Positions 3,266 to 43,490 of a stretch of DNA of 43,490 nucleotides are shown here, piece by piece (within the stretch, counting starts at the first letter, position 1; every line of letters begins with the position of its first letter). The stretch comes from a virus. Its lineage: Duplodnaviria; Heunggongvirae; Uroviricota; Caudoviricetes. The notes beneath the pieces were generated by a model. It was not told the origin of the DNA. It searched no databases and saw only the letters and a list, made by a program, of their open reading frames with translations. The stretch covers positions 1 to 43,490 of the IMG/VR virus record IMGVR_UViG_2778261673_000008, one strand, 5' to 3'. Position numbers and translations under genes: made by a program.

Positions 3266-4147
3266 TTACATAGATGTTTCGTTTAATTCTTCCCGACGAA
3301 CGCTGTAAACGTCGGTGGCTTTTGCCAGCAGTTCGTCATCATCTGAAAGTTTTTGTGCAATGTATTTGTAAGCCTTATCCAGTTCGGAGACAGTGCTGTA
3401 ATTCATCGCTGCGCTGGTAAAGGCCATCAGCATTTCTTCTGGGTCACGGCTATCCGCTTTACGCGTTTGCTCATCAGGCTTTTTCACTGATTTAGCGTTG
3501 ATCAGACTGTTCATTCCCGCAGCAGTAGTCGTTTGCGGAGTAATGTCTCGCTCAACGCGCGGTGCCGTTTCCTGTAATTCGTCAGGGGTGTAAACACCGA
3601 GAAGTACATCAGGAGCGTGCAGGCGAGCCCATCGTTTCGTGCAAAGATAGGCAAGCTGCTGGCGCGGATCCTGTTCCCACAATGGAGAGTTACGCACTCC
3701 GGCTTGCGCCATACTGATGGTAAGCTCACGGGGTTCTGCTTCTCCTTTAAGAACTGCTGACACAGTTACCGTCAGATTCGGTGATTTATCTGTTTTGCCG
3801 TTAACATTCGACCAGTCACCGCTCCAGCGATAATTCAGGCGTGTCGCTAGCAGGCTGGAAGAGGATACGACCGCGTTTACCAACTGTGCTTCGTAGCCTA
3901 ACGTTCCGTTTACCACATGCGTTTTCTGCGCCACGGCGAAAGGGTTCATTCCCCACTGTGCCGCCTGCATGGTCACCGCCAGACAATCGGCAGGTTTGCC
4001 TTCAAGATGTTTCGGTACAGTCGCTTTGCTTTGTGACATCAACTCCGCGAAACGCACCAGTTGATTCATGCCCTCCGGGCTGAAGATTGCCGCAGCAGTA
4101 CCTACAGTTGCGCCTGGTTGTGATGTGATTGCGATATCATTGCTCAT
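3266..4147 (-). CDS. Single-strand annealing protein (RecT/Red-beta-like)
   Basis: 293 aa; QWGMNPF...NGTLGYEAQ resembles the Bet/RecT core; translationally coupled to the downstream exonuclease. Confidence 0.6.
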   Translation of the reverse strand: MSNDIAITSQPGATVGTAAAIFSPEGMNQLVRFAELMSQSKATVPKHLEGKPADCLAVTMQAAQWGMNPFAVAQKTHVVNGTLGYEAQLVNAVVSSSSLLATRLNYRWSGDWSNVNGKTDKSPNLTVTVSAVLKGEAEPRELTISMAQAGVRNSPLWEQDPRQQLAYLCTKRWARLHAPDVLLGVYTPDELQETAPRVERDITPQTTTAAGMNSLINAKSVKKPDEQTRKADSRDPEEMLMAFTSAAMNYSTVSELDKAYKYIAQKLSDDDELLAKATDVYSVRREELNETSM

Positions 4148-4965
4148 ACGTACATATCCTGTTTACGTGCCCAGTCAGGGCGTTTAATAATTTCCACTCC
4201 GCCCCACTCATCGTTGATGCGGCATTCGTGATAGGTATTCAGATCCCGGCGGAACAGAGCGTGCCCGGCATCGACATCCGGCGCATCCAGCTCGAACACG
4301 CGTACCGGATATCGACCACAATCAATGCTTTCGCTCACGGCAAGAAAGAAAAAACCATGCGGCTGACCAGTAACCCTCATTGCGCCTTCGCGGTACATTG
4401 CGTCCTGCACGTGGTAGCGGAATTCCTCGATGTGGCGTGCAAAACGGTCCATATCTGCAACCTTTTTCACGTCGACGATCACGTTGTGCTCGTTCAGCCA
4501 TTTGTCTGGACGAATGCGGCACAACTCACCCGTATCTTCATCGTTCCAGTACATTGATGCTTCGCAGTAACCAGGGGCTTCCAGCATCCAGCGTGCCGCC
4601 GGGTGAGCCATTGCGCTATCACGCATCAGCTCCAGTTTCCGCCACTGCTCGGCATCAAGTACCGTAATCCCCATATCCGCCACATCACGAAGAAATGCCT
4701 CTTCGTCAGCTTTACCTTGTTTCGTCCGACGATCGAATTTCGGTGAAACGATGAAGCGTTTGTCGAATTCTCCAGGTTCCAGAAGCAGGCAGTGCAATGC
4801 GGTTCCCATATCCAGTGCAGACTTTTTCTCTTCGTCTTCTGGTGCTGCCTGAACCCATTTAAGAAGCGCCGGATTCTTGGCAACCATGTCCAGTTGCGAC
4901 TTACTCACGCCGTCACCGGCGTGGTAGTCTTCGTTGCTGATGTCGAAATAAATTCCCGGTTTCAT
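4144..4965 (-). CDS. PD-(D/E)XK exonuclease (RecE / exonuclease VIII C-terminal-domain-like)
   Basis: 273 aa; N-terminal GIYFDISNEDYHAGDG and RPD...VDVKK nuclease motif; paired with the RecT-like gene. Confidence 0.65.
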   Translation of the reverse strand: MKPGIYFDISNEDYHAGDGVSKSQLDMVAKNPALLKWVQAAPEDEEKKSALDMGTALHCLLLEPGEFDKRFIVSPKFDRRTKQGKADEEAFLRDVADMGITVLDAEQWRKLELMRDSAMAHPAARWMLEAPGYCEASMYWNDEDTGELCRIRPDKWLNEHNVIVDVKKVADMDRFARHIEEFRYHVQDAMYREGAMRVTGQPHGFFFLAVSESIDCGRYPVRVFELDAPDVDAGHALFRRDLNTYHECRINDEWGGVEIIKRPDWARKQDMYV

Positions 4966-5264: not shown

Positions 5265-5416
5265 CAGCCCTCCCATATCTCGTTATCGTTGGCCACATCG
5301 CGAGCTTCTTTGCTGACGAAAGCCCACTTAATGCCTTCCTGTAAGGTGCTGAACTTCCAGCTCATGAATCCGCATGCAGTAACGCAGTACCAACCGTTGA
5401 TGATTTTCCACTGCAT
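5265..5416 (-). CDS. Small hypothetical protein (50 aa), first gene of the leftward early operon
   Basis: Not in ORF track (<60 aa); ATG at 5416 with GAGGT RBS; stop overlaps next gene start (TGATAATG). Translation MQWKIINGWYCVTACGFMSWKFSTLQEGIKWAFVSKEARDVANDNEIWEG. Confidence 0.35.
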
Positions 5417-5435
5417 AACTTGTTACCTCGGTCTG

Positions 5436-5513
5436 TTACCGTTGAGGTAATAATTATGCGTATATGGTTTGATGTCAATAGATATGAGTTAAAAAAATTA
5501 CCCGTTAGGTAAT
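5436..5513. promoter_or_regulatory. Left operator region: two copies of palindrome (A/G)TTACC-N5-GGTAAT
   Basis: GTTACC GTTGA GGTAAT at 5435-5451 and ATTACC CGTTA GGTAAT at 5497-5513, upstream of the leftward early operon. Confidence 0.55.
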
Positions 5514-5523
5514 CGAATAGGCA

Positions 5524-5548
5524 ATAAAAAAGCCGCCATAAGGCGGCT
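5524..5548 (-). terminator. Rho-independent terminator downstream of repressor gene
   Basis: GCCGCC-ATAA-GGCGGC hairpin followed by a T-run on the minus strand. Confidence 0.7.
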
Positions 5549-5569
5549 TACTTACTGAAAAATATGGTT

Positions 5570-6154
5570 TTATTGTTTGTTTTTTTCGTTCTGGTTGATG
5601 ACAAATTCAATGTAACTTTCGATCTTTGCTTTCTCGGTTTCGGGTAACAATGCGTAGCGCGAGCGATCATAGTTGATGGTCGCAGGGTCGTGCGGGTGAA
5701 TCAGTAATTCATAGCCGTGACGCCCGAATGCGGATGCAACATTCTCCAGGGTGGAAATGGAAACGCTGACCTCATTGTTTAACAGGCGGCTGATTGTCAC
5801 CTGGGCTACGCCGGATGCGCGGTGAAGTTTTCCCTGTGTTGAAAGGTCGCGGCTTTCGCTCATCCAGCGTTCCAGGTTGTGAGCCGCCAGCTGGCCAATG
5901 TCGCTTGGGCCGACAGGCTGAAAACCTTCCTGAGAAAGCGAGCGATCGATATCAAGCCAGTTACGGGGTTTATTGGCGGCAGCTTCAATTTTTCGTGCAA
6001 CCTGGTCGCCGATAACCTTCTTGCCAAGAGCCCAGCGGTTTACCAGATTTGCCTGAGTTCCAAGTTTTTCAGCCATCCGCGTCTGAACACCATTGAATTC
6101 ACGGTCGATCAAGTCGTTGAGATTTTGCCTGCGGACGTCCTGGATACTTTTCAT
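5570..6154 (-). CDS. Phage repressor with two tandem XRE-type HTH domains, no S24 peptidase domain
   Basis: 194 aa; HTH-like segments near residues 25-65 and 110-160; divergent from the Cro-like gene with operators in between; own terminator. Confidence 0.7.
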   Translation of the reverse strand: MKSIQDVRRQNLNDLIDREFNGVQTRMAEKLGTQANLVNRWALGKKVIGDQVARKIEAAANKPRNWLDIDRSLSQEGFQPVGPSDIGQLAAHNLERWMSESRDLSTQGKLHRASGVAQVTISRLLNNEVSVSISTLENVASAFGRHGYELLIHPHDPATINYDRSRYALLPETEKAKIESYIEFVINQNEKNKQ

Positions 6155-6208
6155 TTTCTGGAAAATCGCCTCATATCTGAATCAGAAGATGATTCAATTT
6201 AAAGCAAT

Positions 6209-6273
6209 ATTACCCAACAGGTAAATGCACCTCGTGGGTAACTATCCTTGATTTTTGTTACCTTATAGGTGAA
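6209..6273. promoter_or_regulatory. Right operator region between repressor and Cro-like gene (three sites)
   Basis: ATTACC CAACA GGTAAA (6209-6225), weaker GCACC TCGTG GGTAA (6227-6241), GTTACC TTATA GGTGAA (6257-6273). Confidence 0.55.
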
Positions 6274-6308
6274 TATTTATTATCTGAAATAAATATCAGG
6301 CAATAGCT

Positions 6309-6539
6309 ATGAGCGATAACGGACATTTCGATTTCAAAAAGCACTGGCTTGCACTTACTCCGGATGAGCGTGAAGCCTTCGCACAGGAAGCCGGAACGAC
6401 GAGTCACTATATCCAGACTCACTTAACAGGTAAGCGCAAAATGCCAGGTAAGGTATTGATGAATGGGCTTTTTAAAGCCTGTAAAACAAGACAATGGCTG
6501 CGCTCAAAAGCAGAACTGGCATACTTCTTCTACTCATGA
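6309..6539 (+). CDS. Cro-like HTH DNA-binding regulator
   Basis: 76 aa, divergent from repressor; HTH-like FAQEAGTTSHYIQTHLTGKR; followed by a terminator. Confidence 0.5.
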   Translation: MSDNGHFDFKKHWLALTPDEREAFAQEAGTTSHYIQTHLTGKRKMPGKVLMNGLFKACKTRQWLRSKAELAYFFYS

Positions 6540-6561
6540 TATCCAGCCACAACCCTCTGTA

Positions 6562-6586
6562 GACCGCCATCCGGCGGTCTTTTCAT
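6562..6586 (+). terminator. Rho-independent terminator after Cro-like gene
   Basis: GACCGCC-ATCC-GGCGGTC hairpin followed by TTTTC. Confidence 0.65.
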
Positions 6587-6594
6587 ATCTATTC

Positions 6595-6610
6595 GTACCT
6601 CAAAGGTAAT
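6595..6610. promoter_or_regulatory. Operator-like palindrome GTACC-N5-GGTAAT
   Basis: GTACC TCAAA GGTAAT just downstream of the terminator and upstream of the 6690 gene. Confidence 0.4.
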
Positions 6611-6689
6611 AAAAAACCAAATATGGTTGATCTTTTTTTTGTGTCAGCACAAAATAACCGTAATCCCAATACTAATAACAGGGCTTACC

Positions 6690-6890
6690 ATGGAAATCAT
6701 TACACGTATTGATGCCGCAAAGCGCGGACTTAAACGCTACTACACCGGAAAACCATGTAAGCACGGACATGACAGTGAACGCTGGGTTTACAACGGACAC
6801 TGTGTTGAGTGCACCATGGAATCAAACCGTCGTATCAGGGCAGAGATTAAGCAGATCATGATTAATTCCTCCCCACAACACTCAAGCTGA
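6690..6890 (+). CDS. Small zinc-binding protein (C-x-H-x-H...H-C-x2-C), function unknown
   Basis: MEIITRIDAAKRGLKRYYTGKPCKHGHDSERWVYNGHCVEC...; occupies the cII-like position between cro-like and O-like genes. Confidence 0.45.
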   Translation: MEIITRIDAAKRGLKRYYTGKPCKHGHDSERWVYNGHCVECTMESNRRIRAEIKQIMINSSPQHSS

Positions 6891-6905
6891 TAGCGGAGAT
6901 TAATC

Positions 6906-7721
6906 ATGAGCAGACATGCAACAGATTGGGCCTGGGAGACAGATCCAGGTAGCTCATCATTAAAGCTCATACTGCTCTCGATGGCTGACAGAGCCGATGA
7001 ATATAACCTCTGCTACCCCAGCATAGAACGCCTCGTTAAAGACACTTGCCTGAATAAAAAAACCGTGCAGGCCGGGCTTATATCGCTCATGAAAATGGGG
7101 CTTATTTCAGATACCGGAGAGAGAAAGGGAGCGACAAAAAGAGTGCGGGTTTTCTCTCTTAATATAACCAAAAACGGGAACATTAAAGGCAACCGGGAGG
7201 GGGGCAATGAACCCGAAAACGTTAATGTTCCCGAAAACGGGAATATACCCAAAAACGGGATGTTGAATGATCCCAAAAACGGGATGTTGAATGATCCCAA
7301 AAACGGGATCCAGAACCAGTCATATAACCAGTCATATAACCAAGAGAGGGAGAGCAGGACAAAAAACGGGGATTCTGTGCATCATGACCCCGGCGCAAAC
7401 AACGCCGTGATGAATAACTTTGTTCCTCCTGGTGGGCCAGGGCAATTAGGCAAATTTGTCATGCATGAACAATGGCAGCCATCAGATGACTTTCTTCGGA
7501 AAAGCTCATTGCAGGGGATCTACCTGGACAGTCTGCCAACGGCACAGGAACTTGCAGAGTTCAGAATTTACTGGATGGCTGAGGGTAAGGCATACCATCA
7601 GGCACAGTGGGAGCAGAAGCTGGCAAGGCGACTGCAGATTAGCAGACAGAAGCAATCAACATTACCTGATAACAACGTTCCGCACTGGAACAGCCCTGAA
7701 GCATGGGAGGATTTCTTGTGA
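6906..7721 (+). CDS. Replication initiator (lambda O-like role) containing iterons
   Basis: 271 aa; N-terminal winged-helix-like region; internal repeats PENGNIPKNGMLNDPKNGMLNDPKNG are encoded by DNA iterons; immediately upstream of the P-like gene. Confidence 0.65.
   Translation: MSRHATDWAWETDPGSSSLKLILLSMADRADEYNLCYPSIERLVKDTCLNKKTVQAGLISLMKMGLISDTGERKGATKRVRVFSLNITKNGNIKGNREGGNEPENVNVPENGNIPKNGMLNDPKNGMLNDPKNGIQNQSYNQSYNQERESRTKNGDSVHHDPGANNAVMNNFVPPGGPGQLGKFVMHEQWQPSDDFLRKSSLQGIYLDSLPTAQELAEFRIYWMAEGKAYHQAQWEQKLARRLQISRQKQSTLPDNNVPHWNSPEAWEDFL
7168..7308 (+). repeat. Iteron array (putative phage replication origin) inside the O-like gene
   Basis: CCC(A/G)AAAACGGGA repeated at 7168, 7212 (partial), 7230, 7248, 7272, 7296 with 18-24 bp spacing, followed by tandem CAGTCATATAACC x2 (7317-7342). 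Confidence 0.7.
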
Positions 7722-8503
7722 ACAACGTTTTTACCGCGATACAAAACCGTGACGGAGAAGCCCTTTCTCGCATGTCAGGTTATGAGCATCAGTACACCAA
7801 CAATGACAACGTGGTGAACATGTCAGCAGAGAGGCTTGTTGATGCCCTTTTCAAACAGCTGAAACAACTGTTTCCGGCGGCAGTGGTAACCAACCTGAAG
7901 ACGCCAGAGCAGGAAGTTGCTGCAAAACAGCAGTGGATTGCTGCGTTTGCCGAAGGGGGGATCCGAACCCGTGAACAGGTTTCTGCTGGTATGCGCCACG
8001 CCCGAGCCAGTGAATCTCCGTTCTGGCCGTCGCCTGGGCAATTCATCAAGTGGTGTAAAGACAGCAAGATGGTTCTTGGCGTCACCATTGACGATGTGAT
8101 GGCAGAGTTTCACCGGTACAGCAAGGAAAAAAGTTTATATCCTGGTGGTCCCGAAAGATTCCCGTGGCGGCATCCGGTTATGTACTGGGTCGTATGTGAT
8201 ACCCGCCGTGCAATGTATCAGCGCCAGCTTAGCGAGATTGAGGTTGAGAAACACGCGCGCAGGCTGCTCGATGATTGGGCGAAAAAGGTGGCTTCCGGAC
8301 AGCAGATACCCGATCCGGTGATCAGCATACAGGCAAAGCCAGAACCCATGAGTACGCCTCCGGACACAGGGAGAGATGTTTACCATCCACCAGGGCGAAG
8401 TTTCGGGTGCATGCCTAACGCCGCCACCCTTGGGGGAATAACACCGGCGCAGTGGCTGATGGAGGAATACAGGCGAGGAAAGGCAGCAGGATTTATCAAG
8501 TAA
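7718..8503 (+). CDS. Replication protein P-like (helicase loader)
   Basis: QQWIAAFAEGGIRTREQVSAGMRHARASESPFWPSPGQFIKWC is close to lambda P (RRQWVLAFRENGITTMEQVNAGMRVARRQNRPFLPSPGQFVAWC, from memory); GTG start with GGGAGGA RBS overlapping the O-like stop. Confidence 0.8.
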   Translation: MNNVFTAIQNRDGEALSRMSGYEHQYTNNDNVVNMSAERLVDALFKQLKQLFPAAVVTNLKTPEQEVAAKQQWIAAFAEGGIRTREQVSAGMRHARASESPFWPSPGQFIKWCKDSKMVLGVTIDDVMAEFHRYSKEKSLYPGGPERFPWRHPVMYWVVCDTRRAMYQRQLSEIEVEKHARRLLDDWAKKVASGQQIPDPVISIQAKPEPMSTPPDTGRDVYHPPGRSFGCMPNAATLGGITPAQWLMEEYRRGKAAGFIK

Positions 8504-8539
8504 TACCAGCGCGATAGCGCATTTTTTTACGCCTATATG

Positions 8540-8618
8540 ATTACCTTGTAGGTAATAAAATGTTCTAATTTCTATTGATTTCATGTCTTATGTGGTTTTT
8601 AATTACCTAAGGGGTAAA
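8540..8618. promoter_or_regulatory. Two operator palindromes upstream of the 8621 operon
   Basis: ATTACC TTGTA GGTAAT (8540-8556) and ATTACC TAAGG GGTAAA (8602-8618, 3 nt before the ATG), with TATGTGGTT between them. Confidence 0.5.
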
Positions 8619-8620
8619 TC

Positions 8621-8965
8621 ATGAGAAAACAGATACAGGCTCTTGGTCGACTCAAAACAGGCCAGATGAACAAAACAGAATCTGCGTATTGCCAGCACCT
8701 TGAGCTGCGTAAACGTGCAGGAGAAATCGTCTGGTATCGATTTGAGGGTATCAAGTTGCGGTTAGCTGACAACACGTTCTATACGCCCGATTTTGCTGTG
8801 ATGCTCGCCACCGGCGAGATGGAACTGCACGAAGTGAAAGGTTTCTGGACCGACGACGCCAGGGTGAAAACCAAAGTCGCCGCAGATCAGTATCCGTTCC
8901 GAATCATCGGGGTAACGGTTAAACCAAAGAAAGCAGGTGGTGGCTGGAACATCGAAGAGTTCTGA
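8621..8965 (+). CDS. Small phage protein, possibly DUF1064-like nuclease fold
   Basis: 114 aa; YTPDF...ELHEVKG...D pattern; assignment by recollection only. Confidence 0.4.
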   Translation: MRKQIQALGRLKTGQMNKTESAYCQHLELRKRAGEIVWYRFEGIKLRLADNTFYTPDFAVMLATGEMELHEVKGFWTDDARVKTKVAADQYPFRIIGVTVKPKKAGGGWNIEEF

Positions 8966-9005
8966 ATCGACGATCTTTTTAGTTATCAATGTTATCAATA
9001 AGTTA

Positions 9006-9014
9006 TGTGGATAA
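9006..9014 (-). promoter_or_regulatory. Consensus DnaA box (TTATCCACA on minus strand) next to a tandem GTTATCAAT repeat
   Basis: TGTGGATAA at 9006-9014; GTTATCAAT x2 at 8982-8999. Confidence 0.35.
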
Positions 9015-9026
9015 GCGAGGGTAAAG

Positions 9027-9509
9027 ATGAAACCGAGTTATGAAGAACTTGAAGAGCAACTGAACAGATCTCGACGTCTCTGTGATGCTGCTCTGGCTAA
9101 TGAGCGGGCATGGGAAACAGCCATGATGCAGGCATGCGGTGAAGACGGTCCGAAGTCAGTAGCTGATAAGTTTGCGGAACTTGAAGCCAGATGCGCGGCG
9201 CTGGCCGCTGAGAATGCGGGGCTGAAACACGCAATGGCCGTAACTCTTGAGCATGTGTCGGTCACGGATGCAGGGCAGGCTGGTGTTGCTGCAATGATTA
9301 TCAACGATGCCCTACACCATAGCGAAACCCCAGCCACCGACGCTTTCCTGGCTGAAGTGCGGGCGCAGGCGTTTAATGACCTTTGCTCGGTGTTCGTTAA
9401 GGACGCGACGGTTGCCGGGCTGGACGATGGCGACATCGTTACGGTGAAAGAAGCGACGGACGCCCTGCTGCATTGTGCGGAACAGATTCGCAAAGGAGGC
9501 AGTCAGTGA
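9027..9509 (+). CDS. Hypothetical protein (160 aa)
   Basis: ORF with GAGGG RBS; coiled-coil-like N-terminus; no recognised domain. Confidence 0.4.
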   Translation: MKPSYEELEEQLNRSRRLCDAALANERAWETAMMQACGEDGPKSVADKFAELEARCAALAAENAGLKHAMAVTLEHVSVTDAGQAGVAAMIINDALHHSETPATDAFLAEVRAQAFNDLCSVFVKDATVAGLDDGDIVTVKEATDALLHCAEQIRKGGSQ

Positions 9510-14335: not shown

Positions 14336-14412
14336 TGGCGTGGCATGCAGGATTCGAACCTGCGACCAACCGCTTAGAAGGCGGTTGCTCTGTCCAACTG
14401 AGCTAATGCCAC
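14336..14412 (-). tRNA. tRNA-Arg (anticodon UCU), phage-encoded
   Basis: Hand-folded cloverleaf: acceptor GTGGCAT/ATGCCAC, D-arm GCTC/GAGC, anticodon stem ACCGC/GCGGT with loop CTTCTAA, T-arm GCAGG-TTCGAAT-CCTGC, encoded CCA. Confidence 0.85.
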
Positions 14413-34484: not shown

Positions 34485-34500
34485 CTGTATATTTATACAG
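34485..34500. promoter_or_regulatory. LexA (SOS) box
   Basis: AACTGTATATTTATACAGTAT matches CTGT-N8-ACAG and the TACTGTATATATATACAGTA consensus; lies in the promoter region of the 34206-34463 gene. Confidence 0.7.
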
Positions 34501-34548
34501 TATCAAATAATTTATTTGCTATCCAGCACGTTTTGAAAATTACCTGAA

Positions 34549-34565
34549 AGGTAATATCTGTTCGA
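34549..34565. promoter_or_regulatory. Operator palindrome ATTACC TGAAA GGTAAT upstream of the tailspike gene
   Basis: Identical to the site at 14734-14750; followed by CATATGTGGTT (34594-34604) and GGTAATAAAAT (34610-34620). Confidence 0.5.
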
Positions 34566-34658
34566 ATTCACAGTCTATCTATCCATATGTGGTTTTTCAG
34601 GTAATAAAATAACCGGATATGCGGCGCAACGGGTGCTGCGACTATCTGGAGATTTAAC

Positions 34659-37070
34659 ATGACGGTCTCAACCGAAGTCGACCATAACGACTACACAGGG
34701 AACGGCGTTACCACATCTTTCCCGTACACGTTCCGCATCTTCAAGAAGTCAGATCTCACCGTCCAGGTCGCTGACCTTAACGAAAATATTACGGTGCTGA
34801 CTCTGGATACCGATTACTCCGTTACCGGGGCGGGTACCTATTCTGGCGGGAATGTCGTGCTGATGTCACCGCTGGCCAACGGATGGCAGATTTCTATCTC
34901 GCGCGACCTCCCAGTTACCCAAGAGACTGACCTCCGTAACCAGGGGAAGTTCTTCGCAGAGGTCCATGAGGATGCGTTCGACAAGCTGACCATGCTTATC
35001 CAGCAGTGTTTCAGCTTTCTACGCCTGGCGCTGCGCAAGCCGTCGTTCATCGCGAACTATTATGACGCACTCAACAACCGCATTCGTAACCTTCGTGACC
35101 CGTCACAGGCGCAGGACGCAGCCACGAAGAATTATGTTGATGGGCAGATCGTTGACAACACCAATGCCTGGAAAGCTGGTGATGCCATTCTTGATCAGAA
35201 GATTGACAGTAATTTTGCGAGAACTCTACGGGTTCCAGAAAGCACTGTTGACCAACTAAGCCCGGTATCTGTTCGGAAAAACTCGTTGTTAGGATGGGAT
35301 AGCAACGGAAAGCCAATACCTGTTTTTTCGATGACAGATACAGCAGATCTCGCAATAAAGTTAGCATCTCATGAAGATGGTCTTGGTATGTCTTTGCTGG
35401 GCATGCCAGGGTCTGGATCTTTAAATCAACTTATTGGTAAGTGGACTTGTCCTGAGGCATGGGGCGTTATTACTGATTCCCAGCCAGACGCTCATGCTAA
35501 TTCTAAAAAAATGTTTAATATGTTTGAGTGGTTACGATCTTTAGGTGGCGGTGTAGCATATTTCACACCAGGTAAAACCTATTGGATTGATTTTATTCAG
35601 TTCGTACCCAGCAATGTTGTAATTATAGGATATGGGGCTACGGTAAAACAGATAAACCCATTGTCAATGTATGGTCGTGGTGGTTTCGTTTTTGGGAGTG
35701 GCAGAGAATGGAACTATAAAAAAGCAAAAGCGGCATACAATTCCGGTAATTACCCGTCTTCCGTTGCTGATTCTACGATGGCAGAGTTACCACTGAAATC
35801 TTACCTGAGAGATAATCAGTCTTATGTTCAGTGTGAGAAATGTAAAGTTTATGGCTTGCGCATGTCTGCAGTGTTTACTGATTCCAGCTATTGGGGAGGC
35901 TATGCATTTAATTGTGTTAATGCACAGCATATAAGATTTTTCGATGTGGTTGGTGATGGTTGGACTCAATTGTTTAACTTTGGTAACGATAGTTCTTCCT
36001 CTTCTCCATCTTGTTATGATGTAATTGCAAAAGGTGCTACCGTTGAAAAGGCGGATCTTGTTCGCACTTATTATGCATTTGGTTTTATTGCAAACTCAAC
36101 AGATTGCTGGATTGAAGATTGTGATCTACTTAAGCCTATGACTGCCGGAACTATTAATGGTTCAGGAGCTGCTACAAACTTTGTAGAAAACTGTGGGTTT
36201 AAAGATTTACGAGCTGCAAAATTAGGTCGTACAGTATCTTCGGAGATGGTTCTATTAAATAATGCAAAAGGCTGTCTTGTTGAGAATATAGATGTTGGTG
36301 ACTGCATTAATGGTGTAGCCACCTACTATACTGATGATTCATATAATGATGCTAACATGCCGAATATTATAAGAAACATTTCTGCATCAGCTGATAATGT
36401 TGTCGCTCTTCGTGCAAAATACTCTGTTATTGATGCATTTCATGGTAAGGGGGCATACATAAATGAGTTGTATTTCGCAAATAATAACGCAAGCGGAAAC
36501 AAAATAAATAAAAACCCTAAATCTATAGGCTTTGGTGGCACAAACCTGCAATCATGGTTTTTAACCAATAATACTGTTCTTGGTTGGTTCAGAAGATATT
36601 TTTATTTAAGACCATCAGAAATAATTCTGAACGACAAAGCAGACACATTATCATGGACATTTAACAAATTAGTATCAACAAAAAACGGTGTTGATCTTTA
36701 CTTCATGTGGAGGGTTCCAGATGATATAAAAGCTATTGATGATATAAGAGCTTTTATAAGATTTAACATTTCACCTGATCAGAATGCAGCAGCAGCAGGA
36801 TCTACTGTTGAAGCAAGTTTAATTCAGATGATATCGTTTGACGGAGATATAAATACAGATCCTTACACGGCGTTTTCTAATTCAAAAGTTGCTACATCTG
36901 GAGTTGAAAACACTACAATAGTAACTCAAATGGGGTCAACTGCCCCTGGCTTTGTAAAAATGGCAGATGAAACACATGGACTTGCATATAGTTGGTATGT
37001 GTTATTTAAAATGACACATAACGTAAATAACAATTATATGAAAGAAATCAGAATAGCGGGGTATAATTAA
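34659..37070 (+). CDS. Tailspike / tail fibre protein
   Basis: 803 aa; N-terminal segment of phage-typical GC content, then a long AT-rich C-terminal part with beta-rich N/G/S/T/Y composition. Confidence 0.7.
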   Translation: MTVSTEVDHNDYTGNGVTTSFPYTFRIFKKSDLTVQVADLNENITVLTLDTDYSVTGAGTYSGGNVVLMSPLANGWQISISRDLPVTQETDLRNQGKFFAEVHEDAFDKLTMLIQQCFSFLRLALRKPSFIANYYDALNNRIRNLRDPSQAQDAATKNYVDGQIVDNTNAWKAGDAILDQKIDSNFARTLRVPESTVDQLSPVSVRKNSLLGWDSNGKPIPVFSMTDTADLAIKLASHEDGLGMSLLGMPGSGSLNQLIGKWTCPEAWGVITDSQPDAHANSKKMFNMFEWLRSLGGGVAYFTPGKTYWIDFIQFVPSNVVIIGYGATVKQINPLSMYGRGGFVFGSGREWNYKKAKAAYNSGNYPSSVADSTMAELPLKSYLRDNQSYVQCEKCKVYGLRMSAVFTDSSYWGGYAFNCVNAQHIRFFDVVGDGWTQLFNFGNDSSSSSPSCYDVIAKGATVEKADLVRTYYAFGFIANSTDCWIEDCDLLKPMTAGTINGSGAATNFVENCGFKDLRAAKLGRTVSSEMVLLNNAKGCLVENIDVGDCINGVATYYTDDSYNDANMPNIIRNISASADNVVALRAKYSVIDAFHGKGAYINELYFANNNASGNKINKNPKSIGFGGTNLQSWFLTNNTVLGWFRRYFYLRPSEIILNDKADTLSWTFNKLVSTKNGVDLYFMWRVPDDIKAIDDIRAFIRFNISPDQNAAAAGSTVEASLIQMISFDGDINTDPYTAFSNSKVATSGVENTTIVTQMGSTAPGFVKMADETHGLAYSWYVLFKMTHNVNNNYMKEIRIAGYN

Positions 37071-37342
37071 TGACTGGTTCAGATGCAAAACAGGCAGATG
37101 TGTTATTCAAGGCTATCGTTGATTATTATGGAAACATGAGCGGAAGCGATATCACTACAGCGCAAGTAAATCAACGTGACAAAATCATAGCAAGTGGAGT
37201 TATTGAATGTGACGACGCTATAGATTTAAAAATACTTGAACTTCAAGACAAGTATATTGATGCAGAAAATGAAGCATCTACTGAAACGATGTTATTAAAA
37301 AGAAAGCAGGTTGTTGAAGAGGCAATTCTTTTATTGTCATAG
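37070..37342 (+). CDS. Hypothetical protein (90 aa), AT-rich
   Basis: Start overlaps the tailspike stop (TAATGA); acidic. Confidence 0.4.
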   Translation: MTGSDAKQADVLFKAIVDYYGNMSGSDITTAQVNQRDKIIASGVIECDDAIDLKILELQDKYIDAENEASTETMLLKRKQVVEEAILLLS

Positions 37343-37460
37343 AAAAACACGTTTTCAATGATCATTTGTCATGATTACCATTTATCCATAAATGGTTTAT
37401 TGTGTATGATGGACTGACCAAACTAAGGAGGTTCATCATGCATAGTAAACGGTGGTCATC

Positions 37461-37865
37461 ATGTCTGCATCGCTAACCGCTGATACAATAAATCAGGGGC
37501 TTAGCTATGGTGCGCTGGCAGCAGTCATCGCCGGCGTACCTCCTGAAGTGGCGCTGGGATCGCTGGCCGGGGCGGTAATTTTTGTTACCTCTGCAGTTGA
37601 GTATCCGTTCAAGCGCCGCGTTCTCCTGGCGCTACTCAGCTTTCTCTGCGGTCTTCTCTTCTACAAACCCACAGCATCAATCCTTATCGGCGTTGCCAGC
37701 ATGATCCCCACCATCACACAGGACTCGTTCGAGCGGGGCATTGTCTACTCCGCCGGCGCGTTCGTTGCCGCAATTGTCGCGGTGCGGGTTGGGATATGGC
37801 TGTATCACCGCTCTGACAATCCGCGCGATTTAATCCCGGGAGGAAAAGACGATGACAGGCCATGA
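37461..37865 (+). CDS. Putative holin-like membrane protein
   Basis: Several hydrophobic segments, charged C-terminus, directly upstream of the lysis genes; start ambiguous (GTG 37452 or ATG 37461). Confidence 0.5.
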   Translation: MSASLTADTINQGLSYGALAAVIAGVPPEVALGSLAGAVIFVTSAVEYPFKRRVLLALLSFLCGLLFYKPTASILIGVASMIPTITQDSFERGIVYSAGAFVAAIVAVRVGIWLYHRSDNPRDLIPGGKDDDRP

Positions 37866-38157
37866 TCTGCTGCTTATCGCTAATTCCATCATCTGCGGCG
37901 GTATAGCGCTGCGGGTGATGTTCTTCCAGCGCAACGGATCGCGCCATCGCCGCTGGGGCGGGTGGATAGCCTATTTCCTCATCGTGGCGGCGGCCAGCAT
38001 CCCGCTGCGCACCGCGTACTCATACCTGTACCACTTCCCTATGACCGCAGATCTTTCTGAGGTCGTTATCAATGCTGTGATGTTCGCCGCGGTGCTGAAG
38101 ACACGCGGCAACGTCGTGCAAATCTTCAAGATATCGAGGTCGCAACATGGACATTAA
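37852..38157 (+). CDS. Putative holin/antiholin membrane protein
   Basis: 101 aa with 2-3 TM segments, GGAGGAAAAG RBS, immediately before the endolysin gene. Confidence 0.45.
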   Translation: MTGHDLLLIANSIICGGIALRVMFFQRNGSRHRRWGGWIAYFLIVAAASIPLRTAYSYLYHFPMTADLSEVVINAVMFAAVLKTRGNVVQIFKISRSQHGH

Positions 38158-40027: not shown

Positions 40028-40546
40028 TTAGCTCTTTTCAGGACATTTGGTATTTGGCTGAATACGCGTTTCGTTATACGTCGTGGTAATAACAACGGCT
40101 AAACCTGTCGTAAACTGGCACTCTTTACCCACCTGGGTAGAGGTATACACTTTGGTGCCTTCCTTATAGGTTAAAGAAACACCTTCCACTAAGGTTTTAT
40201 CATTCACCATAGAACCCGCTGCCGCGCCTACAGCTCCGCCGCCAACTGCACCTGCCGTCGTTCCGGAATTGCTGCCAGACCCGACGTTGTGGCCGATAAC
40301 ACCGCCAGCGACTGCGCCAATAAGCGCGCCGAAGGCTTGTGCGTTCCGTTTATTTTGGGAGTTGTCTACGGCAACTTTTGCGGGAAGAATGGAAATAATA
40401 TTAACGGTTTTAGTTTCTTGTTTGGTATTCAGTTGATCGGTTTGATAAACATCGGCAGCATGATCGTCAGCATTTGACTGGCATCCTGCCAGAGTGAATG
40501 ACGCTAACATTGCCACAGGCAGAAGACATTTTTTAAATTTCATCAC
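40028..40546 (-). CDS. yfgH: Host outer-membrane lipoprotein with glycine-zipper motif, YfgH-like
   Basis: 172 aa; lipobox LAGC; GALIGAVAGGVIGHNVGSG glycine zipper. Confidence 0.55.
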   Translation of the reverse strand: MMKFKKCLLPVAMLASFTLAGCQSNADDHAADVYQTDQLNTKQETKTVNIISILPAKVAVDNSQNKRNAQAFGALIGAVAGGVIGHNVGSGSNSGTTAGAVGGGAVGAAAGSMVNDKTLVEGVSLTYKEGTKVYTSTQVGKECQFTTGLAVVITTTYNETRIQPNTKCPEKS

Positions 40547-40856
40547 TATTCCTTGTTATACACATTACGAAAAATAAGACATTTAAGATCATCAAAAGAG
40601 GAAAGTAAATGTATTGCGTATAAAGGGATAGATTAAATTTATTAAAATTCACGCAGGGAATAATTTATAAAAATATATCATTACAACATATATATTAATT
40701 TTATATTTATTTCGCAGCCAAACAGGATAAACATCAGTCAGGATAAAGACGTAAAATTTAAGATGAAAGAATATCTGCCGCTTTGATAATCCCAAACAGC
40801 AAAAGCATCCGACAGCGAAGTGCCGTTATGTTCTGTGAAAGTGGAGAAGGTAACCG

Positions 40857-41048
40857 CTAACGTTGTACCGGTGATTCGACGGAGAGTGTGGATTGCTGAG
40901 CTTCTTTTTTGCTCTGATGGTGCTGCCAGGCACCGACGGACGAGTAGATAAAACGGCCAAAGAAGAAGATAAAGCTGATGAGCAGTACGATACGGGTCAT
41001 GCGACTGTTAAATCGGTGTCGTTTTCGCATACTGGTTGCCTGACTCAC
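40857..41048 (-). CDS. yfgG: Small host membrane protein, YfgG-like
   Basis: 63 aa with one TM segment; position between yfgH-like and pdeF-like genes. Confidence 0.5.
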   Translation of the reverse strand: MSQATSMRKRHRFNSRMTRIVLLISFIFFFGRFIYSSVGAWQHHQSKKEAQQSTLSVESPVQR

Positions 41049-41399
41049 AAAAGGTTCCTTGAAGTATGTCCCACGCTGTGGACGGTACTTACATTAAGGC
41101 ACAACAGGACAAAATGGTCAATTCTTCGTTATGTAAAAAAGCGTCAGTGGATACATATTTTAATGTTATGGAAGTTAATTTAATTATTTACAATGATGAT
41201 GTAATAATGATGAATTAACATGATAAACGTAATAATTCATTAATCAGGGTTATTTTGTTTGATATATATCAATTGGTACTTTCATATGACACTTAGAATC
41301 AATGCTCTCTATAGTGATGAATAATCATCATTCGAAGTCAGGTGGGATGCCTGTCTGAATACACCTCCTTCAGGATGTGGGGGATTCTGCTGAGCATCT

Positions 41400-43490
41400 A
41401 TGAAACTGAATGCAACTTATATAAAAATACGTGATAAATGGTGGGGGCTTCCGCTGTTCCTGCCTTCTTTAATCTTGCCCATTTTCGCCCACATTAATAC
41501 TTTCGCGCATATTTCTTCCGGTGAGGTTTTTCTCTTTTATCTGCCTCTGGCACTGATGATCAGCATGATGATGTTTTTCAGCTGGGCGGCATTGCCAGGG
41601 ATCGCCTTAGGGATTTTTGTCCGCAAATATGCAGAGCTGGGTTTTTACGAAACGCTATCATTAACGGCTAATTTTATTATCATTATCATTCTCTGTTGGG
41701 GCGGTTACAGGGTCTTTACTCCCCGGCGTAACAACGTTTCACATGGTGATACCCGTTTAATTTCCCAGCGTATATTCTGGCAGATTGTGTTTCCTGCAAC
41801 GCTGTTTCTGATACTTTTCCAGTTTGCTGCATTTGTAGGATTACTGGCGAGCAGAGAAAATCTGGTCGGTGTCATGCCTTTTAACCTCGGGACTTTAATC
41901 AATTATCAGGCCTTACTGGTGGGTAATCTGATCGGTGTCCCGCTGTGCTACTTCATCATTCGGGTAGTGCGAAATCCATTTTATTTACGTAGCTATTATT
42001 CGCAATTAAAACAGCAGGTTGATGCCAAAGTCACCAAAAAAGAGTTCGCGCTCTGGCTACTGGCATTAGGTGCTTTATTGTTGCTGTTATGCATGCCGTT
42101 AAATGAAAAAAGCACAATTTTTAGCACCAATTATACCTTGTCATTATTGCTGCCCCTGATGATGTGGGGAGCGATGCGCTATGGTTATAAGCTGATTTCG
42201 CTGCTCTGGGCGGTCGTGTTGATGATCAGCATCCACAGCTATCAAAATTACATTCCCATTTATCCTGGCTATACCACGCAGCTGACCATAACCTCCTCCA
42301 GTTATCTGGTATTCTCTTTTATTGTCAATTATATGGCTGTACTGGCAACCCGTCAGAGAGCGGTAGTCAGACGCATTCAGCGGCTTGCGTATGTGGACCC
42401 GGTGGTTCATCTGCCAAATGTTCGCGCCCTGAATCGCGCGTTGCGTGATGCCCCCTGGTCTGCGCTTTGTTATTTACGCATCCCTGGCATGGAAATGCTG
42501 GTTAAGAACTATGGCATCATGCTGCGGATTCAATACAAGCAAAAACTTTCTCACTGGCTGTCACCCTTGCTGGAACCGGGTGAAGATGTTTATCAGCTTT
42601 CGGGTAACGATCTCGCGCTGCGACTGAATACAGAATCGCACCAGGAGCGCATTACCGCACTGGATAGCCATCTCAAGCAATTTCGTTTCTTTTGGGATGG
42701 CATGCCGATGCAACCGCAGATTGGCGTCAGTTACTGCTATGTGCGCTCGCCAGTGAATCATATCTACCTGCTGCTGGGAGAGCTAAATACGGTCGCCGAA
42801 CTTTCCATCGTGACCAACGCCCCGGAAAATATGCAGCGTCGCGGGGCAATGTATTTGCAACGCGAATTGAAAGATAAAGTCGCGATGATGAATCGACTAC
42901 AGCAGGCGCTGGAACACAACCATTTTTTCCTGATGGCCCAGCCGATTACCGGTATGCGTGGTGATGTTTACCATGAAATTCTTCTGCGCATGAAAGGTGA
43001 GAATGATGAACTGATCAGCCCCGATAGCTTCTTGCCGGTCGCGCACGAATTTGGTTTATCGTCGAGTATCGACATGTGGGTCATTGAGCATACGCTGCAA
43101 TTTATGGCTGAAAACAGAGCGAAGATGCCCGCTCACCGTTTTGCTATTAATCTGTCTCCAACCTCGGTATGTCAGGCTCGTTTTCCTGTTGAAGTCAGTC
43201 AGTTGCTGGCTAAATATCAGATTGAAGCGTGGCAACTTATTTTTGAAGTCACCGAAAGTAATGCTCTGACCAATGTTAAGCAGGCGCAAATCACCTTGCA
43301 GCATCTTCAGGAATTAGGCTGCCAGATTGCGATTGATGATTTCGGCACCGGCTACGCCAGCTATGCACGGCTTAAAAATGTGAATGCCGATCTGCTTAAA
43401 ATTGACGGCAGCTTTATCCGCAATATTGTGTCAAATAGTCTGGATTATCAGATAGTGGCGTCGGGTGATGCTGCCAACTTACTGATTTAG
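41400..43490 (+). CDS. pdeF: c-di-GMP phosphodiesterase, MASE1-GGDEF(degenerate)-EAL; PdeF/YfgF-like
   Basis: N-terminal multi-TM MASE1-like domain; EAL-domain motifs EVTE, DDFGTGYAS, KIDGSF; ORF ends with in-frame TAG at the last base of the window. Confidence 0.7.
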   Translation: MKLNATYIKIRDKWWGLPLFLPSLILPIFAHINTFAHISSGEVFLFYLPLALMISMMMFFSWAALPGIALGIFVRKYAELGFYETLSLTANFIIIIILCWGGYRVFTPRRNNVSHGDTRLISQRIFWQIVFPATLFLILFQFAAFVGLLASRENLVGVMPFNLGTLINYQALLVGNLIGVPLCYFIIRVVRNPFYLRSYYSQLKQQVDAKVTKKEFALWLLALGALLLLLCMPLNEKSTIFSTNYTLSLLLPLMMWGAMRYGYKLISLLWAVVLMISIHSYQNYIPIYPGYTTQLTITSSSYLVFSFIVNYMAVLATRQRAVVRRIQRLAYVDPVVHLPNVRALNRALRDAPWSALCYLRIPGMEMLVKNYGIMLRIQYKQKLSHWLSPLLEPGEDVYQLSGNDLALRLNTESHQERITALDSHLKQFRFFWDGMPMQPQIGVSYCYVRSPVNHIYLLLGELNTVAELSIVTNAPENMQRRGAMYLQRELKDKVAMMNRLQQALEHNHFFLMAQPITGMRGDVYHEILLRMKGENDELISPDSFLPVAHEFGLSSSIDMWVIEHTLQFMAENRAKMPAHRFAINLSPTSVCQARFPVEVSQLLAKYQIEAWQLIFEVTESNALTNVKQAQITLQHLQELGCQIAIDDFGTGYASYARLKNVNADLLKIDGSFIRNIVSNSLDYQIVASGDAANLLI

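Follow-up and report, generated by a model that had tools for sequence, protein, structure and literature searches.

The segment at 7167-7342 of the virus record IMGVR_UViG_2778261673_000008 (Caudoviricetes; 43,490 nucleotides, hereafter the window, whose numbering is used throughout) is, judged from its sequence and that of its relatives, very probably a functional replication origin of a phiV10-like temperate Escherichia coli phage, which lies inside the linker-coding part of the phage's own initiator gene (6906-7721, plus strand, 271 aa). With Escherichia phage phiV10 and related phages (genus Uetakevirus, epsilon15 group) the region shares 98% identity. Lambdoid phages are the textbook case of an origin within the initiator gene (PMC7466680), and the arrangement itself is known from lambda; for the phiV10 group it is not annotated in the fetched records. 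Two details are somewhat unexpected: one iteron is the same as that of phi80 although the domains that read them seem unrelated, and the array is followed by a 12/13-mer element common to the family.

Six copies of CCC(A/G)AAAACGGGA, four exact and two degenerate, lie within 7167-7308. The exact form CCCRAAAACGGGA starts at 7230, 7248, 7272 and 7296, with a one-mismatch copy at 7167 and a two-mismatch copy at 7212; an outlying weak iteron-like seventh copy (ACAAAAAACGGGG) is located at 7359-7371. The first-pass annotation had proposed five to six direct repeats here at 18–24 bp spacing. Their number and position were confirmed, and the spacing holds for all but the first copy, the start-to-start distances being 45, 18, 18, 24 and 24 bp. 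At up to two mismatches on both strands of the whole window, the motif matches ten times against 1.54 +/- 1.14 expected, six of the ten within 142 bp; none of 100 dinucleotide shuffles reached ten, and no further cluster was found at this threshold. Tandem Repeats Finder likewise reports an 18-bp array (7211-7260), a 24-bp array (7248-7309, 100% matches) and a 12-bp array. The last is the tandem first described as two copies of CAGTCATATAACC, which is present with a period of 12 bp instead of 13, namely AACCAGTCATAT x2.4 at 7314-7342 (100% matches).

The units are dyad-symmetric apart from the two degenerate outer ones, iteron 1 (7167-7179, ACCAAAAACGGGA) and iteron 2 (7212-7224, CCCGAAAACGTTA). 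Iteron 3 (7228-7243) reads TTCCCG-AAAA-CGGGAA with 6-bp arms and is the same as the core of the phi80 gp15-binding site; iteron 4 (TACCCAAAAACGGGAT) occupies 7246-7261, and iterons 5 (7270-7285, 5-bp arms) and 6 (7294-7309) both read ATCCC-AAAAAC-GGGAT.

All window copies lie in one reading frame of the open reading frame (ORF) 6906-7721, between the HTH_36 match (aa 18-67) and the DnaT-like match (aa 184-252) of its product. They encode (P/T)(K/E)NG units followed by QSYNQSYNQ, so that the PKNG-type linker first noted inside the initiator coding sequence was recovered. The repeats could be imagined as a by-product of this linker, repetitive and prone to slippage, with no function as DNA. The shared frame and the common peptide would fit such an origin of the repeats, as would the low complexity of the linker, which is modelled without confidence from aa 90, and the varying unit number among near-identical phages, which slippage predicts. 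The choice of codons argues against it, because rare codons, CCC and GGG, are the only ones for Pro and Gly in the units: Pro is encoded by CCC in 5/5 cases, compared with 7% for the Pro codons in the rest of the window, and Gly by GGG in 6/6, compared with 16% (p=4e-4 and p=6e-4, respectively, with the three identical units counted once). The identity of one unit with annotated phi80 protein-binding sites, the compensatory changes in the dyad arms and above all the reading frames of the relatives also speak for conservation at the DNA level, which leaves the by-product explanation very improbable.

The relatives comprise 68 loci from one-genome-per-species contigs whose N-domain is 40–87% identical to that of the window, to which phages of Vibrio, Edwardsiella, Acinetobacter and E. 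coli were added for comparison. Conservation of the repeats in homologous initiator genes was borne out. In nearly all of about 60 homologues (N-domain identity 35–87%; Enterobacterales, Vibrio, Acinetobacter, Pseudoalteromonas, Marinomonas and Desulfovibrionaceae) the 11-mer repeated most often in the gene is located at nt ~270–480, directly after the N-domain, and the repeats are mostly CCC-A-tract-GGG variants spaced by 17, 18, 22 or 24 bp. Since many of these spacings are not multiples of three, 49 of 62 loci read the motif in at least two frames, and 30 in all three, as in locus L093, where it yields SPKNG, IPKTE and SQKRT. The same motif thus specifies unrelated peptides in the 49 loci, which indicates that the conserved object is the DNA and not the peptide. 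Paired arm changes keep the dyad, as seen on comparing AACAGTCCC-aaaaac-GGGACTGTT (L139) with AACACACCC-aaaaac-GGGTGTGTT (L140); further variants include GTACCG-AAAA-CGGTAC and GTCCCA-ACAA-TGGGAC, and across the family the arms reach 9 bp.

The array comprises 5 to 9 units in 80 near-identical viral contigs; gains and losses always involve complete units of 18 or 24 bp and keep the reading frame intact, and 1 to 3 copies of the 12-mer are present. The form in the window is the commonest, phiV10 has three 12-mers, and the record of phage BP9 has one 24-bp unit fewer. The protein therefore tolerates changes by blocks of 6–8 residues, as expected of an origin located in an unconstrained linker; the putative origin sits where the protein tolerates change, in a low-complexity linker. 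The close relative IMGVR_UViG_2925908680_000005 (L079) has nine iteron units in a gene of 888 nt, and at two other initiator loci (L017 and L051) the ORFs are shortened to 549 and 696 nt, possibly by frameshifts in the repeats or by sequencing errors.

The array also coincides with irregularities in database records. In O157 typing phage 9 (L002, KP869107.1, locus 1901-2000) an assembly break, marked by a run of N, falls where the iteron array begins; in typing phage 10 (KP869108.1) the match extends to the end of the record; and the database proteins for the initiator gene include many short fragments, which made up most of what an N-domain query returned and served only as an alignment for the structure model. 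Evidently the repeats disturb assembly and gene calling at this locus, giving breaks and truncated gene calls. The typing phages 9 and 10, whose match begins within the repeat block, were considered as a natural N-domain swap; this candidate was rejected, as the N run identifies it as an assembly gap. The BP9 record (L003, PP488543.1, 133437-138010), 138 kb long and classified as Vequintavirus, ends in a phiV10-type immunity/replication segment that is 97% identical to the window, and an unannotated 115-kb record, 'phage PH444', holds a segment of the same type; both may reflect assembly chimerism or prophage contamination.

The initiator consists of a winged-helix N-domain, the repeat-encoded linker and a DnaT-like C-domain. 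Its Pfam matches are HTH_36 (PF13730; aa 18-67, 1.8e-10) and DnaT (aa 184-252, 1.2e-15), it matches phrog_1032 'replication initiation protein' at 2e-107, and it is 98% identical to phiV10 p43, which is labelled 'putative primosomal protein'. The N-domain (aa 1-87, encoded at 6906-7166, plus strand) is the presumed reader of the iterons. Its AlphaFold2 model (aa 1-92, pLDDT 89.6) is a winged helix with four helices and a beta-hairpin wing, and the confidence collapses at aa 90, which is the repeat start; the best fold neighbours are HTH_36 phage initiators (TM 0.8–0.9) and, in the PDB, dimeric winged-helix regulators. The C-domain (aa 180-265, encoded at 7443-7700, plus strand) matches the solved DnaT C-domain structures 4OU6, 4OU7, 2RU8, 6AEP and 9ZBT in phmmer (E 7e-21 to 3e-19). 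Against the full-length DnaT equivalog NCBIfam PRK02854, the protein scores 85 bits compared with a cut-off of 201, with the match confined to aa 181-264. The whole protein fails this model, and the label 'primosomal protein' therefore covers the C-domain only.

The relationship to lambda O is confined to the winged helix. At the Pfam gathering score the initiator has no match to Phage_rep_O (PF04492) and HTH_36 alone is found at the N-domain; among 44 family N-domains HTH_36 is present in 44/44, and marginal Phage_rep_O matches occur in 5/44 (best E 0.0078). BLASTP of the initiator detects no similarity to lambda O, including its C-terminal half, or to phi80 gp15. In hhalign an alignment of lambda O with gp15 is matched at E 9.6e-5 (probability 58%) over 44 columns, restricted to the recognition helix and the wing. 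The 50 best viral fold matches of the N-domain do not include lambda O, and a profile search of viral contigs with the lambda O and phi80 gp15 alignment returned only near-identical copies of lambda O, so that the O profile was not deepened. As sequence, profile and fold comparisons reach no further, the kinship is claimed at the winged-helix level only. The term 'O-like' first given to the initiator thus suits its function and gene architecture, and is wrong for its family, which is HTH_36 with a DnaT C-domain (phrog_1032; DopC-like) next to a P-like gene.

The adjoining gene (7718-8503, plus strand) encodes a lambda-P-type helicase loader, as had been proposed. Its likely start is the GTG at 7718 after a GGAGG, with an alternative in-frame ATG at 7703, and the start overlaps the initiator stop by 4 nt (GTGA), the same overlap as in lambda O/P and in the phiV10 annotation. 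The product matches Pfam Phage_lambda_P (PF06992, 1.5e-56) and phrog_109 'P-like helicase loader', is 31% identical to lambda P (1e-35), and matches the solved lambda P chains 8V9T (2.4e-31) and 6BBM (3.4e-15).

Across the family the repeats go, as far as the compared sequences tell, with the N-domain. TL-2011b has the DnaT-like C-domain and the P gene in common with the window, and SPN1S the C-domain; in both, the N-domain is unrelated and the motif is absent. The partner genes differ across the family (P-like, DnaB-like or other), and the array is retained. The core motif is kept down to ~41% N-domain identity and lost below ~40%. The association is called qualitative, because the correlation between the copy number of the core motif and overall N-domain identity is not significant (Spearman 0.23, p=0.14). 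A different protein might bind the repeats, either a host factor or the product of a small Cys/His-rich ORF at 6690-6890 (plus strand, 66 aa, …KPCKHGH…HCVEC…). This ORF adjoins the initiator gene on its 5´ side and is kept in phages (phrog_1081, of unknown function; no match in Pfam), and binding by the initiator is itself a proposal, which gives the idea some room. However, the repeats accompany the N-domain in widely differing genomes, whatever the partner gene, and are absent when it is replaced, and dyad units suit a dimeric winged-helix reader, so that we regard another binder as highly improbable. At the initiator locus of Salmonella phage SPN1S (L009), which is without a P-like gene, clusters of GTCCGC/GCGGAC hexamers in both orientations at ~11-bp spacing (1384-1453 and 1620-1703) are possibly that phage's own origin or operator sites.

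The AACCAGTCATAT tandem after the last iteron is the window's form of a family-wide GAAYC-N3-CA 12/13-mer element and forms the proposed unwinding and helicase-entry region. Two or three tandem copies of [GT]AAYC-N3-CA directly follow the last iteron in 41 of 61 loci, at a density of 22.3/kb compared with 0.29/kb elsewhere in the same loci. The period is 12 nt in 25 cases and 13 nt in 15, which means that the element is not frame-locked. On the coding strand the segment shows an A-over-T skew of 0.31 in the family, compared with 0.20 for the gene (0.41 in the window and 0.45 in lambda), and 33 of 60 loci have an A-run of at least 5 in it. In eight loci of enterobacterial prophages (L137, L139, L140, L142, L147-L149 and L152), a conserved AAAGATCTAAA with a GATC site follows the 12-mer-like element ~40–60 nt past the last iteron; phi80 has AAAAGATCT at the corresponding position, and the window is without the AAAGATCTAAA motif.

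The stability of the initiator genes was profiled as the nearest-neighbour energy of 40-mers. In the positive controls the least stable 40-mer directly follows the last iteron, both in lambda O (the known AT-rich region, z=3.0) and in phi80 (z=2.7). In 42 of 61 family loci, against 7.1 expected, the gene-wide minimum lies no more than 90 nt past the last iteron. The window itself departs from this pattern, and an origin of opposite polarity was therefore weighed, in which unwinding and helicase entry would occur on the left flank at 7149-7188 and not at the 12-mer block. This segment is the least stable 40-mer of the gene (z=3.0), ahead of 7308-7347 on the right, the second lowest (z=2.1). It overlaps degenerate iteron 1 and the end of the N-domain coding region, whereas the conserved 12/13-mers and A-runs are on the right; the right flank is the less stable one in 54 of 61 loci, with the gene-wide minimum on the left in only 4 of 61, and lambda and phi80 open on the right (stability controls; PMC7466680). 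Opening on the left is accordingly unlikely, and the right flank is preferred.

Another possibility is that the repeats are initiator sites mainly for autoregulation, as a transcriptional roadblock or for copy control, with replication starting elsewhere in the genome. Plasmid iterons also serve as control elements. The right flank of the window is a weaker AT-rich region than that of lambda, and a DnaA box with a small tandem repeat lies 1.7 kb downstream of the array, at 8982-9014. There, within a 61-bp intergenic stretch (8966-9026) 3´ of a DUF1064/resolvase-like gene (8621-8965), two tandem copies of GTTATCAAT (8982-8999) are directly followed by the sole perfect DnaA box of the window, TGTGGATAA (9006-9014). 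Yet DnaA boxes are not enriched across the window (13 compared with 9.7 expected) and no second iteron cluster exists in it. The least stable stretch abutting the last iteron in 42 of 61 loci, together with the conserved 12/13-mer there, fits an origin better than a pure operator, and the same layout is present in the lambda and phi80 records, where it is annotated as ori iterons and gp15 binding sites. A purely regulatory array is thus improbable. The cumulative GC skew reaches its minimum at ~4.5–8 kb, near the repeat locus, and is confounded there by a switch in transcription direction.

For the origin that we favour, the following mechanism may be proposed. Winged-helix dimers of the N-domain would bind the four good and two degenerate 14–16-bp iterons to form a complex resembling the lambda 'O-some'; we infer dimer binding because the units are dyad-symmetric, go with the N-domain and include one identical to the phi80 sites. 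Strain would be relieved in the adjoining low-stability, A-rich segment with the 12-mer tandem (7314-7342), on the same side as the AT-rich region of lambda, as the stability profiles of the window and the family suggest. The DnaT-like C-domain, solved relatives of which bind single-stranded DNA, might then hold the opened strand and/or recruit the complex of the P-like loader with host DnaB, leading to DnaB loading, a role assigned by domain homology only. Transcription from an early rightward promoter through the initiator gene may assist, as in lambda; the promoter scan gives no above-chance support for this.

Several observations weigh against this assignment. The phiV10 record has no annotated origin, and full-text searches of an open-access library returned no description of the motif or the origin and no binding or replication experiment for phiV10/epsilon15 phages. 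Because all copies in the window share one frame, the frame argument is borrowed from its relatives. The contiguous-arm dyad statistic, a crude measure on per-locus consensus units that sometimes takes the wrong register, gives a modest excess (4.05 compared with 3.09 shuffled), with individual loci much clearer, and the correlation of the repeats with N-domain identity is not significant, as described above. In the window's gene the left flank, not the right, holds the least stable 40-mer, and the right flank is only moderately AT-rich, with 57% AT compared with 52% for the gene and a dG of -48.2 compared with -43.0 for the lambda AT-rich region. The roles of the DnaT-like domain and of the 12-mer are purely inferential.

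The lambda arrangement of the origin within O, which had been claimed from the start, appears to be reproduced in its main features. In both phages the origin is mid-gene, within the part coding for the linker behind the N-terminal DNA-binding domain; the direct repeats show dyad symmetry (ATCCC...A-tract...GGGAT; lambda ATCCCTCAAAACGAGGGAT and window ATCCCAAAAACGGGAT); and a P-type loader gene overlaps the initiator by 4 nt. Past the last repeat comes an A-over-T-skewed segment of low stability, which in lambda is the least stable of the gene and in the window is second to the left flank. In lambda this opening region is AT-rich and lies on the right side of the iterons (PMC7466680), and the lambda record annotates four ori iterons inside O, ATCCCTCAAAACGAGGGAT and variants. 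The window differs in that its initiator is not Phage_rep_O and has a DnaT-like C-domain instead of that of lambda O, its units are 14–16 bp compared with 18–19 bp (the spacer is 3 bp shorter), it has six units at 18/24-bp spacing compared with four, and its flank is a 12-mer tandem of modest AT content compared with an AT tract of ~40 bp. The dyad-symmetric iterons would suggest dimer binding as in lambda.

In the phi80 record (JX871397) four gp15 binding sites with the core TTCCCGAAAACGGGAA are annotated inside gene 15, and 7228-7243 of the window is exactly this core (phi80 site at L162 6684-6699). Both arrays occupy the same place in the gene, and a P-type gene (gene 14 in phi80) is downstream; in phi80 the least stable segment comes right after the last site. 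In contrast, gp15 belongs to Phage_rep_O (6e-25), pairwise comparison detects no similarity between it and the window initiator, and phi80 has four sites at 21-bp spacing and is without the GAACC-type 12/13-mers.

The protein pair of the window resembles DopC/DopE, chromosomal and domesticated descendants of this initiator family in Cellvibrionales and Oceanospirillales (Brezellec et al., 2017; PMC5509034), in that a protein with HTH_36 and DnaT_C is followed by a lambda-P-like protein. In the HHpred analysis of that study lambda O carries HTH_36, with homology to DopC apparently at the N-terminus only. The study also reports that dopC showed no iteron-like sequences (PMC5509034). The window pair is phage-borne and has a full iteron array; it is thus an origin-carrying counterpart, in a phage, of the pair for which iterons were reported missing. 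The iteron plasmids RK2 and F, and oriC, share with the window a winged-helix initiator, a direct-repeat array and 3–4 adjoining tandem 12/13-nt repeats in the opening region, which for the window is a putative one, whereas the window differs from the iteron plasmids in that its origin lies inside the initiator gene and its iterons are dyad-symmetric.

Other phages with HTH_36 initiators (phi24B and Min27 'O', SfII, Acinetobacter AB1 gp53, Vibrio H20 and Edwardsiella GF-2) share the fold and family of the N-domain and have dyad repeats at the same gene position, but the repeats differ in distant members (GGGCAGGAGCTGCCC in phi24B, GTCAAAATCTGAC in SfII), as do the C-domains and the helicase or loader partners. 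In the fetched records of these phages the arrays are annotated in none. The Stx phage phi24B (L160) has an unannotated dyad array of GGGGTGGGGCAGGAGCTGCCC x3 (GGGCAG-GAG-CTGCCC) at 2290-2355 inside its 'O' gene, and Shigella phage SfII (L161) has unannotated GTCAAAATCTGAC x5–6 (GTCA-AAATC-TGAC) at 15 bp in 2089-2250 inside its 'primosomal protein' gene. Both arrays are probably the origins of those phages.

At RK2 oriV and F oriS, the initiators TrfA and RepE bind one strand of the unwinding-element 13-mers sequence-specifically (PMC4081077); these 13-mers and those of oriC are the nearest functional parallel to the element of the window. It is tempting, though doubtful, to view the GAAYC-N3-CA 12/13-mer as a sequence-specific origin element of this kind, for example a strand-specific initiator contact or a helicase-entry site comparable with RK2 and the oriC 13-mers, and the iteron common to two dissimilar initiators (that of the window and phi80 gp15) as deeply conserved or convergent recognition with possible cross-talk between replicons. 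If true, the first of these readings would define an undescribed, widespread origin architecture for HTH_36-type phage initiators.

The general view of how origins work is unchanged by the phiV10-type origin. For phiV10-type phages, which are used in O157:H7 typing, as reporters and in biocontrol, it offers a concrete putative origin to annotate, clone or avoid in engineering, and it corrects the misleading label 'primosomal protein DnaT' on their initiators. It also provides a rule for finding origins in hundreds of prophages: dyad repeats right after the HTH_36 N-domain, then GAAYC-type 12/13-mers.

Upstream of the replication genes are a repressor gene (5570-6154, minus strand), a small regulator gene (6309-6539) and a terminator-like hairpin (6561-6580, plus strand), which is a putative terminator in the phiV10 record. 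A promoter and terminator scan of 5400-9100 gave a result not above chance. Two minus-strand "terminators" at 7256-7299 were rejected, since they are hairpins that pair the arms of adjacent iterons and arise because the units are dyad-symmetric. The leftward early operon contains a gene pair for a RecT-like annealing protein and a RecE-like exonuclease VIII (3266-4965, minus strand), and a tRNA-Arg (anticodon TCT) lies within the phage sequence at 14336-14412 (minus strand). The GC content is 0.41–0.43 at 34500-38000 and 40500-42500, compared with ~0.50 in the remaining window, which suggests that modules such as genes for the tailspike or for O-antigen modification were acquired horizontally.

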